DNA from: Escherichia coli
Lineage (GTDB): Bacteria > Pseudomonadota > Gammaproteobacteria > Enterobacterales > Enterobacteriaceae
DNA length: 64,000 nt
Assembly (NCBI RefSeq): GCF_003334405.1
Contig: NZ_QOWM01000007.1
Reading direction: 5' to 3' (one strand)
The notes below the pieces were generated by a model, which was not told where the DNA came from, did not search any database, and saw nothing but the letters and a program-made list of their open reading frames with translations. The translations under genes and the position numbers were made by a program. Positions 4,000 to 11,192 of the stretch are shown piece after piece (the stretch's first letter is position 1; each line of letters begins with the position of its first letter).

Positions 4000-5190
4000 A
4001 TGAGTGAATTTATTGCCGAAAACCGCGGCGCGGATGCCATCACCCGACCGAACTGGTCAGCCGTTTTCTCGGTGGCGTTTTGTGTCGCCTGTCTGATTAT
4101 CGTTGAGTTTTTGCCCGTCAGTTTGTTGACGCCAATGGCCCAGGATTTAGGCATTTCGGAAGGGGTTGCCGGGCAATCGGTGACCGTGACCGCCTTTGTG
4201 GCAATGTTTGCCAGTTTGTTTATTACCCAGACAATTCAGGCTACTGACCGCCGCTACGTTGTTATTTTGTTTGCCGTTTTGCTGACGCTCTCCTGCTTGC
4301 TGGTTTCCTTTGCTAACTCATTCAGTTTGCTTTTAATCGGTCGTGCCTGTCTGGGGCTGGCGCTGGGCGGGTTCTGGGCGATGTCGGCGTCGCTGACCAT
4401 GCGTCTGGTGCCGCCGCGTACGGTGCCGAAGGCGCTGTCGGTGATCTTCGGCGCGGTTTCTATTGCGCTGGTGATTGCCGCGCCGTTGGGCAGTTTTTTA
4501 GGCGAGCTTATCGGTTGGCGCAATGTCTTTAATGCGGCGGCGGTGATGGGCGTGCTGTGTATTTTCTGGATTATCAAATCATTGCCTTCACTGCCAGGCG
4601 AACCCTCGCATCAGAAACAAAATACTTTCCGCTTATTACAACGTCCGGGTGTGATGGCAGGGATGATCGCCATCTTCATGTCTTTCGCCGGGCAGTTTGC
4701 TTTCTTCACGTATATTCGCCCGGTGTATATGAACCTGGCGGGATTCGGCGTGGATGGCTTAACGCTGGTGCTGTTGAGTTTTGGTATCGCCAGCTTTATT
4801 GGTACGTCGCTTTCGTCGTTCATTCTTAAACGTTCGGTAAAACTGGCCTTAGCAGGCGCGCCGTTAATACTGGCTGTGAGTGCGTTGGTACTGACGTTGT
4901 GGGGAAGCGATAAAATCGTTGCTACCGGCGTGGCGATTATCTGGGGGCTAACTTTTGCATTGGTTCCCGTCGGCTGGTCAACGTGGATCACCCGCTCGCT
5001 GGCCGATCAGGCAGAAAAAGCCGGGTCTATTCAGGTGGCGGTTATTCAGCTTGCTAATACCTGTGGCGCGGCAATCGGCGGTTATGCGCTGGATAATATT
5101 GGTCTGACTTCGCCGTTGATGTTGTCCGGCACATTGATGTTGCTGACTGCATTGTTGGTTACTGCAAAGGTGAAAATGAAGAAATCCTGA
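4000..5190 (+). CDS. nepI: purine ribonucleoside efflux pump (MFS)
   Basis: ORF track starts at 3835, but the MFS protein begins [10 protein letters not shown] at the ATG at 4000 (396 aa); 12-TM pattern. Confidence 0.88.
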
Positions 5191-5230
5191 TATCAGGTAA
5201 AGAAGCGTTGGTCAGTAGTTGTTGCTGTTC

Positions 5231-5524
5231 TTACATATCCGGGCATTCTACCTTACCCAACGCTTCCCAATAATTGCTCTGATTATTACGTTCCATCGCC
5301 ACGATGGCCTCGCGTATATGTTGTTTATTGTTTTCATCTGACAACATTAACTTTTCCCACGCTTCATCTGATAATGACGCCTGTGGCGTGCAAATTTTAC
5401 GTAAATCTTGTAATACCGTGGTTTTCTCTTTTGCGGACTGCAGTGAGCTAAAAGGCGACTCGGCGTATACGATGCCTGGCATAGCGAAAAAAGTGAAAAT
5501 AAGCAGTAGTGTCGTTGGTTTCAT
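5231..5524 (-). CDS. yicS: small secreted protein YicS
   Basis: 97-aa ORF with N-terminal signal peptide (MKPTTLLLIFTFFAMPGIVYA). Confidence 0.8.
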   Translation of the reverse strand: MKPTTLLLIFTFFAMPGIVYAESPFSSLQSAKEKTTVLQDLRKICTPQASLSDEAWEKLMLSDENNKQHIREAIVAMERNNQSNYWEALGKVECPDM

Positions 5525-5745
5525 GGATTCAACCTTTTACAAATGTGTATCGAATGAAGCATAAGTGTAGTTTGCTTTCATCGCTCTCATCATGCTGTAC
5601 GAAACGCGCTTGCGTGGTCAGTAAGAAGTGCCAGACTTTATATTCCACTTTTATTCCTTTTTATTCTTATCGATAGCGTTTCGTTTTTTAAACCGCAGCG
5701 ACCTTACCGCTATAGTCAGGTAATCATTAATAAAAGGATAAAAAA

Positions 5746-6564
5746 ATGAAACTGACAACACATCATCTACGGACAGGGGCCGCATTATTGCTGGCCGGAA
5801 TTCTGCTGGCAGGTTGCGACCAGAGTAGCAGCGATGCAAAACACATTAAAGTTGGCGTTATAAATGGCGCAGAACAAGATGTCGCGGAAGTCGCTAAAAA
5901 GGTGGCAAAAGAGAAATATGGCCTCGATGTTGAACTGGTAGGATTTAGCGGTTCGTTGCTACCGAACGATGCGACAAATCATGGCGAACTTGATGCGAAT
6001 GTCTTCCAGCATCGACCCTTTCTTGAACAAGATAATCAGGCGCATGGTTATAAACTGGTAGCGGTGGGAAATACGTTTGTCTTCCCTATGGCGGGTTATT
6101 CCAAAAAAATCAAAACCGTGGCGCAAATAAAAGAAGGCGCGACAGTGGCGATCCCCAACGACCCGACCAACCTTGGTCGCGCACTTTTACTGTTGCAAAA
6201 AGAGAAGCTAATTACTCTGAAAGAGGGAAAAGGGTTATTACCTACCGCGCTGGATATAACCGATAATCCTCGTCATTTGCAGATTATGGAACTCGAGGGG
6301 GCGCAGCTCCCGCGCGTACTGGATGATCCCAAAGTTGATGTAGCGATTATCAGCACCACTTACATTCAGCAGACCGGGCTTTCTCCGGTGCACGACAGCG
6401 TATTTATTGAAGATAAGAATTCGCCGTATGTGAATATTTTGGTGGCACGGGAAGATAATAAGAATGCAGAAAACGTGAAGGAATTTCTGCAATCTTATCA
6501 ATCACCCGAAGTCGCTAAAGCGGCAGAAACCATTTTTAACGGTGGCGCGGTGCCTGGCTGGTAA
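5746..6564 (+). CDS. nlpA: lipoprotein-28, methionine-binding NlpA family
   Basis: 272-aa ORF with lipobox LLAGC; matches E. coli NlpA. Confidence 0.92.
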   Translation: MKLTTHHLRTGAALLLAGILLAGCDQSSSDAKHIKVGVINGAEQDVAEVAKKVAKEKYGLDVELVGFSGSLLPNDATNHGELDANVFQHRPFLEQDNQAHGYKLVAVGNTFVFPMAGYSKKIKTVAQIKEGATVAIPNDPTNLGRALLLLQKEKLITLKEGKGLLPTALDITDNPRHLQIMELEGAQLPRVLDDPKVDVAIISTTYIQQTGLSPVHDSVFIEDKNSPYVNILVAREDNKNAENVKEFLQSYQSPEVAKAAETIFNGGAVPGW

Positions 6565-7491: not shown

Positions 7492-7601
7492 TTTTCCCTC
7501 TGCATACTGTTTTGTCGTTTATGTATGCAGGCATGATAGCAAAAATGGCGAGGATGGCTCTGTTTGCGCCACGCCGATTTTTCTTAGCCCAGACTGGTGA
7601 G

Positions 7602-8786
7602 CTAAATATCTTTAATAAACAGCAGGCAAATCATCGCAATACCCAACATCCCTATCGCCAGCCAGAACAACGCATGGTAGCTCCAGATTTCAACCATAAT
7701 TCCGTCAACAGAGCCGGCGATAATCCAGCCGACGCGTGAAGTATTTGCATATAACGTTGTCGCAGAGCCTATTTTTTCAGGCATCAAGTCCTGAAAATAA
7801 AGCATGCCGATACCACAGAGAATACCAAGGAAGATGGCATTAAGAATTTGCAATTCCAGCTCAACCGCCGGAGTCGTCGCCATGAGTACGCTGGCGTAAA
7901 AACACATTCCACTCACGATAGCAATGAGCATTAATAGTCGCTTGCCAATACGTTTCATGTAATAGCCTGCGATTAACATCATCGGAATTTCCAGACCGGC
8001 AGCGATACCAATCATTTCTCCAGCCAGTTTATCGGTTAGATGCAGTTCATCAATAATAAATAGCGGCATATTTATCATGTAGAGATTATTCGCCGCCCAC
8101 ATCATTGAACAGACCACAAAAAGTAGCCGCGTATCCCGCTTCCTGTGGGTGGAGGGTAAAATTTCTACGGGTTGGGTAACGACAGGAATATTTCTTTGTA
8201 TTGATGGCAAAAACAACCAGACTATCAGTCCGCAAACAACAAATGCGATGGCAGCGGTGAGATACATCACTTTAAAACTAAATCCCATTGCCAGTTCATA
8301 AGCGAGCGGTGGCCCGATAACCCAGGCAAGCGAGATCTGAGCACGTAAAAATGTACTGAACATGACCGTCTCACGGCCTGTTCTGTCGGCGTGTTCACGG
8401 GCGAGGGCGAACATTTGCGGGTTTGCGGTGGAAGCAAAACTACTCAGAAGTACGCCCGTTGAGAGGAGAATGAAGTAGTTGCGATTCCACGCAAAAAGCG
8501 TGCAGGCCAGCACTCCAAATAAGCAACATAGCAGAATCAGTAATTTACGGTCGCCTTGTTTATCGGAGTGCCTTGCCAGAAATTGACTGACCAGAATTCC
8601 CATAATAGCGCTACCGGTGAAGAAAAAACCTACCATTATAGGACGGGCTTTCAGTTCATCTGCGAGGAATATACTTAGGGTAGGAGTCTGAAGAGCGCCC
8701 GCAATACCCGTCAGAAAGGCGACAAGTAAAAATGCCGCGGCAGTGAGATCAAGTATTTTTGATGGAGTGGTAGCCGTTTTTTGCAT
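7602..8786 (-). CDS. setC: sugar efflux transporter SetC (MFS)
   Basis: 394-aa MFS ORF matching SetC/YicK. Confidence 0.88.
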   Translation of the reverse strand: MQKTATTPSKILDLTAAAFLLVAFLTGIAGALQTPTLSIFLADELKARPIMVGFFFTGSAIMGILVSQFLARHSDKQGDRKLLILLCCLFGVLACTLFAWNRNYFILLSTGVLLSSFASTANPQMFALAREHADRTGRETVMFSTFLRAQISLAWVIGPPLAYELAMGFSFKVMYLTAAIAFVVCGLIVWLFLPSIQRNIPVVTQPVEILPSTHRKRDTRLLFVVCSMMWAANNLYMINMPLFIIDELHLTDKLAGEMIGIAAGLEIPMMLIAGYYMKRIGKRLLMLIAIVSGMCFYASVLMATTPAVELELQILNAIFLGILCGIGMLYFQDLMPEKIGSATTLYANTSRVGWIIAGSVDGIMVEIWSYHALFWLAIGMLGIAMICLLFIKDI

Positions 8787-9422
8787 TCTTCTGAATCACC
8801 GGGCGAAAAAATATAACTGAGTTACAAATAAGTACCAGTCGAATGAGTATTGTATTAAGAATTTTTGAGTATCGCTGATACAACCAGAAAGCAATGCTAG
8901 CGCAATATTATAGGGCCAGCAATTGAGATTATTAGTAAAAGCATGTTAAGAATTAATTACCGAATTTATATATTAATTATAGTAAGGCAATGAGCTATTT
9001 TTGATAGTAAAAATAAAACAAGTTGATTTGATATATTAAATGAACAAATTAATCTTGATGGCAGTCTGATTATTGGTGAAGTTTATAGTCAGTTTTTTTC
9101 GCCAGCGGTTAAAGAAATAGAATAGTCGTATAAAAAAGGGTGTTCTGGGGCGAGTAAAACAACATCTTCACCTTAATGGCGATACAGTTGGCTGAGAGTC
9201 AGCAGGGGGGCAAATCACCTGCAAATAAACACGGCGCATACTGGCGTGAATATCGCGGATGCGTTCGAGGACAGAAGAACCGACAGGCGGATTCTTCAGC
9301 CGCTCATCGTCCATCACAAAACCTTAGACCAGGTATTCCTGAAGCCGATTGAATATTGAGCAGTAGAAAATATCTGGATTGACAGTATTACAAGGGGTTG
9401 GAGAACGTCAGGAGAGGCATTT

Positions 9423-9517
9423 TGGCGGAAGATCACAGGAGTCGAACCTGCCCGGGACCGCTGGCGGCCCCAACTGGATTTGAAGTCCAGCCGCCTCACC
9501 GGAGACGACGATCTTCC
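9423..9517 (-). tRNA. selC: tRNA-Sec (selenocysteine, anticodon UCA)
   Basis: The reverse complement of 9423..9517 reads GGAAGATCGTCGTCTCCGGTGAGGCGGCTGGACTTCAAATCCAGTTGGGGCCGCCAGCGGTCCCGGGCAGGTTCGACTCCTGTGATCTTCCGCCA, the 95-nt E. coli selC tRNA with long variable arm and encoded CCA. Confidence 0.97.
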
Positions 9518-9548
9518 GCGCCTCGATTGCTACATGGAGGCGGGGCGC

Positions 9549-9554
9549 ATTATA
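9549..9554 (-). promoter_or_regulatory. candidate -10 hexamer (TATAAT) of the selC promoter with GC-rich discriminator
   Basis: Minus strand reads ...gtagcTATAATgcgccccgcc... about 30 nt upstream of the mature tRNA 5' end; the GC-rich discriminator is typical of stable-RNA promoters; -35 not clearly assignable. Confidence 0.45.
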
Positions 9555-9809
9555 GCTACTTCCTTGAGTTTCTACATCCCCCAGATCAGTTTTTTCCGCC
9601 TAATACACGCAGCGTATTATCACGAAAGCATTATAGTTCATATAAAATCCATATTTTACAATGATATATGAGCGGAATTAACGCTACCACGATCACATAA
9701 AACAAGAATCATAAATTAATAACCAGATATCGGAATATTCGCTCTCACAGGGATGGTTTACAAAATGCGTTATCGGTCTCAGCACCCCTATAGCATCAAG
9801 GAAAAGTAG

Positions 9810-11192
9810 ATGAAGAGTGAAGTGTTGTCCGTTAAAGAGAAAATTGGTTATGGCATGGGAGACGCCGCCAGCCACATTATTTTCGATAACGTAATGTTAT
9901 ATATGATGTTCTTTTATACCGATATTTTTGGCATTCCTGCCGGATTTGTCGGAACCATGTTTTTGGTCGCTCGTGCACTGGATGCGATTTCCGATCCTTG
10001 CATGGGGTTGTTGGCCGATCGAACGCGCTCTCGCTGGGGTAAATTTCGTCCGTGGGTACTGTTTGGCGCACTGCCATTTGGGATCGTCTGTGTACTGGCC
10101 TATAGCACGCCAGATCTCAGTATGAACGGAAAAATGATTTATGCAGCAATTACTTACACCCTACTTACCTTACTTTATACCGTCGTCAATATCCCTTACT
10201 GCGCATTGGGTGGTGTAATCACCAATGACCCGACTCAGCGTATCTCGCTGCAATCCTGGCGTTTTGTGCTGGCGACCGCGGGAGGCATGCTTTCTACGGT
10301 TCTGATGATGCCACTGGTTAATTTAATTGGTGGTGATAATAAACCACTCGGTTTCCAGGGTGGTATCGCGGTCCTTTCCGTGGTGGCATTCATGATGCTG
10401 GCATTCTGTTTCTTCACCACTAAAGAACGCGTTGAAGCACCACCTACAACGACGTCTATGCGGGAAGATTTACGTGATATCTGGCAAAACGACCAGTGGC
10501 GGATTGTCGGTTTACTAACCATTTTCAATATCCTGGCGGTGTGCGTACGCGGTGGAGCGATGATGTATTACGTCACATGGATTTTGGGTACGCCGGAAGT
10601 GTTTGTCGCTTTTCTCACCACTTATTGCGTGGGTAACCTGATTGGTTCCGCTCTGGCAAAACCGCTGACCGACTGGAAATGTAAAGTCACTATTTTCTGG
10701 TGGACGAACGCCCTGCTGGCAGTGATTAGCCTCGCGATGTTCTTTGTTCCCATGCAGGCCAGCATCACTATGTTTGTCTTCATCTTCGTGATTGGTGTGT
10801 TGCATCAACTGGTGACACCTATCCAGTGGGTAATGATGTCCGATACCGTCGACTACGGCGAGTGGTGCAATGGTAAACGCCTGACCGGGATCAGTTTTGC
10901 TGGCACGCTGTTTGTGCTCAAACTGGGGTTGGCCTTCGGCGGCGCTCTTATCGGCTGGATGCTGGCTTATGGCGGATATGATGCGGCAGAAAAAGCGCAG
11001 AACAGCGCCACGATTAGCATCATTATTGCGCTATTCACGATTGTTCCGGCGATCTGTTATTTGCTGAGCGCGATTATCGCTAAACGCTACTACTCACTCA
11101 CGACGCACAATCTGAAAACCGTTATGGAACAGCTGGCCCAGGGCAAACGCCGTTGCCAGCAACAATTCACCTCTCAAGAAGTGCAGAACTAA
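9810..11192 (+). CDS. yicJ: GPH-family glycoside/cation symporter (putative xyloside transporter)
   Basis: 460-aa 12-TM ORF matching YicJ; immediately upstream of yicI. Confidence 0.88.
   Translation: MKSEVLSVKEKIGYGMGDAASHIIFDNVMLYMMFFYTDIFGIPAGFVGTMFLVARALDAISDPCMGLLADRTRSRWGKFRPWVLFGALPFGIVCVLAYSTPDLSMNGKMIYAAITYTLLTLLYTVVNIPYCALGGVITNDPTQRISLQSWRFVLATAGGMLSTVLMMPLVNLIGGDNKPLGFQGGIAVLSVVAFMMLAFCFFTTKERVEAPPTTTSMREDLRDIWQNDQWRIVGLLTIFNILAVCVRGGAMMYYVTWILGTPEVFVAFLTTYCVGNLIGSALAKPLTDWKCKVTIFWWTNALLAVISLAMFFVPMQASITMFVFIFVIGVLHQLVTPIQWVMMSDTVDYGEWCNGKRLTGISFAGTLFVLKLGLAFGGALIGWMLAYGGYDAAEKAQNSATISIIIALFTIVPAICYLLSAIIAKRYYSLTTHNLKTVMEQLAQGKRRCQQQFTSQEVQN

Follow-up and report, generated by a model that had tools for sequence, protein, structure and literature searches.

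The tRNA gene selC is a hot spot for the integration of genomic islands. One of the genes described at this site is rhuM, which is part of the Salmonella island SPI-3 at tRNA-selC (PMC3680342). RhuM-like domains were proposed by comparative genomics as toxin domains in R-M-linked multilevel defence loci (PMC3710099). In PADLOC, a candidate single-gene phage-defence system, PDC-S05, is represented by models that the intact RhuM of E. coli ST131 matches with an E-value of 2.8e-173; the function of this family is only predicted. Relatives of RhuM in the PDB were not found by sequence, and a search of the recent literature on RhuM or PDC-S05 returned nothing usable.

The association with tRNA-Sec extends beyond Salmonella. 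In a scan with one genome per species, 381 close relatives of the ST131 RhuM were found, and the best 80 loci, with Salmonella not among them, were inspected. In 22 of these best 80 loci (17/60 and 5/20), a tRNA-Sec gene is located on the same strand no more than 4 kb upstream, and its distance to the rhuM start is often only 150-500 nt; tRNA genes of other types were not found in any of the 80. The tRNA-Sec-rhuM arrangement occurs, among others, in Escherichia albertii, Yersinia, Serratia, Pantoea, Enterobacter, Raoultella, Hafnia, Proteus, Providencia, Morganella and Photorhabdus. This adjacency may reflect either one type of island with rhuM in the selC-proximal position or an old synteny. 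Across Enterobacterales, tRNA-Sec recurrently has rhuM, a candidate for a defence or toxin function, as its first neighbor.

Genomic context of the frame downstream of selC

The window analyzed here is a stretch of 64,000 nt from an E. coli genome (assembly GCF_003334405.1, contig NZ_QOWM01000007.1), and around the frame under study it matches E. coli K-12 MG1655 with 100% identity. The tRNA-Sec (UCA) gene selC is encoded on the minus strand at 9423..9517 (ARAGORN; Rfam RF01852, 83.8 bits; selC b3658 in NC_000913.3), and yicJ is found on its other side at 9810..11192 on the plus strand (ORF list). Downstream of selC, a leader spans 9346..9422 on the minus strand, as delimited by blastn of K-12 against ST131 and by a three-way alignment that includes the corresponding locus of strain E69. 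The 15 nt next to selC (9408-9422) are common to K-12 and ST131. The remainder, 9346-9407, is of the K-12 type and runs into the rhuM start codon in strain E69. The sugar efflux transporter gene setC is located at 7602..8786 on the minus strand (ORF list, annotations and homology boundaries), inside a segment, 7521-9407, that is replaced in ST131. It is preceded by an AT-rich non-coding spacer (8787..9167), in which the GC content falls to 0.23 and for which blastn found no ST131 counterpart. An imperfect inverted repeat of 30 nt (8789-8818 and 9087-9116, 70% complementary) flanks the 268 nt with the highest AT content upstream of setC; it may be due to chance or may mark the ends of a decayed small element.

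Between this spacer and the leader, a frame of 48 codons is open on the minus strand at 9168..9314, from an ATG at 9314, 108 nt downstream of the selC 3' end on the same strand, to a TGA at 9168-9170. This frame had been reported in a sequence-only reading of the same DNA, and the identical translation was obtained here. A GTG one codon 5' of the ATG gives a 49-aa variant in the ORF list. The same reading had pointed to a coding-like composition that contrasts with the AT-rich neighboring DNA. The contrast is real, as the composition profile gives a GC content of 0.54 in the frame versus 0.23-0.29 at 8900-9100, and it is explained by the RhuM ancestry of the segment described below. The reading had also noted the lack of a convincing Shine-Dalgarno sequence. 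This is roughly right, with the qualification that a weak AAGG, the sole ribosome-binding-like element upstream of the ATG, is present at a distance of 7 nt. The AAGG itself consists of former RhuM codons (TAA GGT TTT).

The length of the frame is within chance expectation. Across six frames, 179 ATG-initiated ORFs of 48 codons or more are present in the window, compared to an average of 232 in random sequences from a first-order Markov model; frames this long arise by chance at a rate of about 1 per 300 nt of six-frame sequence. Length alone would therefore be compatible with a chance ORF in intergenic DNA that has no coding ancestry. This explanation is refuted, however, by homology to RhuM that is beyond chance, is seen at both the protein and the DNA level and reaches past the ends of the ORF, and the local GC content also differs from that of the flanking spacer. 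We consider a chance origin to have next to no probability. Antisense to the segment, an ATG-initiated ORF of 58 codons is found at 9176-9352 on the plus strand; it is consistent with chance expectation for its size and has no support.

The frame is the open part of a rhuM pseudogene

The 48-codon frame is, with high confidence, the open part of a dead gene: it belongs to the K-12 pseudogene yicT, which derives from an internal part of a rhuM gene and has decayed. The identity of yicT is already known, since the K-12 reference annotation and PGAP both list a pseudogene at this locus. In NC_000913.3, yicT (b4653) is annotated at 3836425..3836556, which corresponds to 9314..9183 of the window, so that it shares its start with the ATG at 9314. 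The annotated pseudogene and the frame agree in start, strand and location between selC and setC. They differ at the other end: yicT stops at 9183, where the RhuM homology ends, 15 nt before the TGA of the ORF. PGAP annotates 9183..9344 as rhuM, RhuM family protein, with an internal stop, incomplete, and lacking both the N- and the C-terminus. In contrast to yicT, this feature reaches upstream to 9344, across a TAA stop codon. The PGAP label of a partial rhuM pseudogene is repeated in every sampled strain. No relevant paper was found in a literature search for yicT, b4653 or the K-12 coordinate.

Taken together, annotations, Pfam, tblastn and blastn delimit a rhuM remnant at 9183..9345 on the minus strand, which covers approximately residues 121-185 of the 345-aa RhuM. 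Membership in the RhuM family is indicated by a profile match as well as by alignment to an intact member. Residues 1-33 of the 48-aa peptide match Pfam PF13310 (Virulence_RhuM; model positions 62-98 of 252, E 1.2e-4). A tblastn search with the intact ST131 RhuM against the K-12 interval aligned residues 121-185 to 9345..~9183 with 41/65 identical residues (E 5e-20); this alignment crosses the TAA stop and has two gaps, one of 8 and one of 3 residues. In DNA, the remnant and the ST131 rhuM are 75% identical over 154 columns with a 24-nt gap (E 1e-31). The first 14 residues of the peptide are identical to the intact RhuM, and upstream of the ATG the homology continues across the in-frame TAA (...LQEYLV*GFVMDDERLK...). 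The ATG at 9314 corresponds to Met131 within GFVMDDERLK, the most conserved motif of RhuM, and is not a gene start. Like RhuM family members (PF13310; SPI-3 rhuM, WP_001280586.1), the remnant has conserved the LQEYL-KGFVMDDERLKNP and ERIRDIRAS motifs. It also shares the family-typical location of rhuM genes, the first gene position downstream of tRNA-Sec: it begins 78 nt past selC and is encoded on the same strand.

A gene remnant at selC had been among the options of the sequence-only reading, which took it for the N-terminal part of a disrupted gene. The remnant is borne out; its N-terminal nature is not, as residues 121-185 are internal and the ATG is an internal Met codon. More generally, a short, coding-like ORF at a tRNA gene where islands integrate can be no more than the part of a dead gene that is still open. 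The yicT ORF itself carries little weight beyond a tidy annotation, and it makes no open question testable.

Protein-level searches gave a view of the locus that was limited to fragments. The first protein search returned short fragments only, mostly from E. coli. A profile search matched thousands of RhuM proteins; among the matches listed, all were shorter than 200 aa and came without genomic context, and the intact RhuM used for comparison was therefore obtained by searching E. coli genomes at the DNA level. Scans of the peptide against NCBIfam and PHROGs gave no match. In public protein collections, the exact 48- and 49-aa sequences are called on at least 1,000 and 613 contigs, respectively, under the names 'cytoplasmic protein' or 'hypothetical protein' (e.g. 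EcHS_A3870).

Lesions and breakpoints of the remnant

Compared to intact RhuM, the remnant comprises only ~65 of 345 codons, is interrupted by an internal stop, carries two in-frame deletions and has lost both termini (~120 N-terminal and ~160 C-terminal codons). The internal stop, a TAA at 9324..9326 on the minus strand, replaces the Lys codon of a conserved 'IKGF'; translation and the allele alignment show it to be polymorphic. The larger in-frame deletion, of 24 nt, removed VPDYFDEM and is approximately located at 9268..9272 (minus strand), as judged from the tblastn and blastn gaps and from a protein alignment with P0033 and P0045. The smaller one, of 9 nt relative to intact rhuM, is found near codons 33-36 of the ORF. 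A homopolymer at 9205..9210, six G on the plus strand and six C in codons 35-36 of the minus-strand ORF, is the site of a -1 frameshift in other strains, as seen in the allele alignment and the allele counts. In addition, His23 of K-12 is derived, the RhuM family having a conserved Arg at this position.

A functional RhuM would be expected to have an uninterrupted domain of ~250 positions in a protein of ~330-345 aa, and the remnant has neither. The K-12 fragment differs from PDC-S05 and from the RhuM toxin domain in keeping only ~15% of the domain (37/252 model positions), and no such defence or toxin activity is therefore expected. From its sequence, the remnant most likely makes no functional product.

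The 5' breakpoint of the deletion was located at 9345/9346 by the three-way alignment with the E69 locus (CP089930.1). Strain E69 is labelled E. coli, and its flanking genes are only ~88% identical to K-12. It carries the K-12-type leader beside a partial copy of the selC 3' end. In E69, the leader leads into the rhuM ATG (ATGTCAGACAAAGAC...); in K-12, the same leader joins codon 121 directly. This difference supports a simple 5' deletion in K-12. A second copy of the selC 3' end in direct orientation, as expected of an attR site, was not found between 7000 and 9600 of the window, and thus no island boundary survives in K-12. In a further strain (locus L010), an island is inserted at selC, and the remnant, being found on the side towards setC, does not belong to this island.

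Two forms of the selC-yicL interval

In ST131 strain 5506, selC is followed after 52 nt by the start of an intact rhuM on the same strand; its 345-aa product (WP_001280586.1) carries PF13310 at residues 70-323 (E 5.7e-118). According to blastn, K-12 and ST131 are identical from yicJ through selC to position 9408 of the window. Beyond 9408, the two are unrelated except for the rhuM fragment, until similarity resumes at 7520, just beyond yicL. At the boundaries, the identity is 100% towards selC and 97% towards yicL. In E. coli, the interval between selC and yicL is thus documented in two alternative forms, represented by 7521-9407 of the window (K-12) and by 4261-6550 of the ST131 locus L003. 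The K-12 form, of 1.9 kb, consists of the rhuM remnant, the AT-rich spacer and setC; the ST131 form, of 2.3 kb, contains intact rhuM and a hypothetical gene of 165 aa and is devoid of setC. NCBIfam gave no match for either the intact ST131 RhuM or its 165-aa neighbor.

Since the remnant is only 75% identical in DNA to the ST131 rhuM, compared to 97-100% in the flanks, it is not descended from the ST131 allele. An intact parent of the remnant itself was not found in these searches.

These observations suggest the following history. A full-length rhuM of ~345 codons would once have been the first gene downstream of selC. In the K-12 lineage, a single deletion would have taken the last ~35 nt of the leader together with codons 1-120, and a second event would have removed everything beyond approximately codon 185, where AT-rich DNA and then setC are now found. 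The surviving ~160 nt would later have gained the stop codon, the two in-frame deletions and, in many strains, frameshifts. We infer this order of the deletions, as well as an ancestral copy that was intact and island-borne and a fragment that is untranslated.

Conservation of the frame across E. coli

A sensitive DNA search covered 5,426 complete E. coli genomes. Seven diverged alleles, chosen for their divergence in the ORF region, were aligned. Because this sample was selected for divergence, exact alleles were also counted in all complete genomes. The in-frame 58-mer is present in 2,484 genomes and two frameshifted forms in 783 and 58, so that the -1 frameshift at codon 35 is found in at least 841 of ~3,600 carrier genomes. 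Some 900 genomes lack the segment altogether, and in 844, ST131 strain 5506 among them, the only match is 60-80% identical and is annotated as an intact 'virulence RhuM family protein'. In the divergence-selected sample, five of the seven alleles have a 1-nt deletion in the C-run (9205-9210), which results in an ORF of 46 aa whose tail is unrelated. In one of the five, from L010, a second 1-nt deletion reduces the ORF to 32 codons. The upstream TAA (9324-9326) reads AAA in five of the seven. The frame is not conserved.

These counts bear on the proposal, put forward in the sequence-only reading, that the frame is a genuine small-protein gene, i.e. that the 48-aa peptide is translated and has been retained because it has a function itself, such as modulating or neutralizing incoming RhuM-type proteins. 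In favor of such a gene, the frame is open in the 2,484 genomes mentioned above, about two thirds of the carriers and K-12 included; the ATG has the weak AAGG at 7 nt, the first 14 residues are those of intact RhuM, and automated gene callers often report the ORF. Against it, relatives tolerate the frameshift, other alleles are cut to 32 aa, many genomes have no copy or only a distant intact rhuM, and IS elements replace the segment in some strains. The divergence of the ORF among the seven divergence-biased alleles equals that of the neighboring non-coding DNA, with substitutions of 3.0% in the ORF, 2.7% in the flanking AT-rich non-coding sequence, 0.6% in setC and 0% in yicJ. Only six distinct substitutions are found in the ORF of these seven alleles, three synonymous and three non-synonymous, which is too few for dN/dS. 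Furthermore, no independent family of small proteins was found for the peptide: all matches of comparable length are fragments of this one locus, of Escherichia type and mostly from E. coli. A consensus scan shows no promoter-like site on the minus strand. A small-protein gene is very unlikely on this evidence, and the idea of a conserved gene fails on the tolerated frameshifts, which the sequence-only reading had itself named as a ground for rejection, although translation of the remnant peptide as such is possible, judging from the sequence.

A related idea is that the remnant is not inert, either because a translated peptide interferes with RhuM proteins of islands or phages, or because the ~70 nt of motif DNA anchor integrase-free recombination of rhuM islands into the selC-setC region. 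We regard this as a still fainter prospect.

If the segment acted as RNA or as a regulatory element, it could serve to terminate or process the selC transcript, encode a small RNA or belong to the control region of setC. The segment does sit between the tRNA gene and the upstream region of setC, and one weak terminator-like hairpin is found on the minus strand at 9182..9168. However, this single terminator-like match compares with 0.9 expected from shuffled sequences, the fold of the 263-nt segment in transcript sense is no more stable than its shuffles (z = -0.36), and tRNA-Sec is the only Rfam hit in 8700-9850. The segment is also absent or replaced in many E. coli that have a normal selC. 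Such a role is extremely improbable, and a decayed rhuM fragment remains the preferred interpretation of the segment.

The setC-selC intergenic region is interrupted by IS1 in several strains. In strain 19KM1863 (L013), IS1A and IS2 replace most of the remnant, leaving only 45 nt of the 291-nt query.

Possible rearranged copies of rhuM at other loci

An ENA metagenome contig (protein P0008; L004 1-384) joins a foreign 5' part of rhuM to sequence that is 99.8% identical to K-12, with the junction exactly at the conserved KGFVMDDERLK motif. The contig begins 78 nt upstream of the gene. It was considered as evidence for recombination and rejected as such, since a contig edge combined with a join in a conserved motif is typical of a metagenome assembly artefact. 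The contig is probably an assembly chimera; a real recombinant is possible and would hint at recombination at the motif.

The E69 locus (L014) has a more complex structure than a single rhuM gene. Its 727 nt of upstream sequence contain no complete tRNA-Sec. Partial copies of the selC 3' end at 204-267, 1878-1913 and 2012-2063 bracket the intact rhuM. After this gene, a second copy of the rhuM 5' end follows, together with an ORF of 405 aa on the opposite strand that is possibly an integrase. From its sequence organization, the locus looks like tandem or nested remnants of selC islands.
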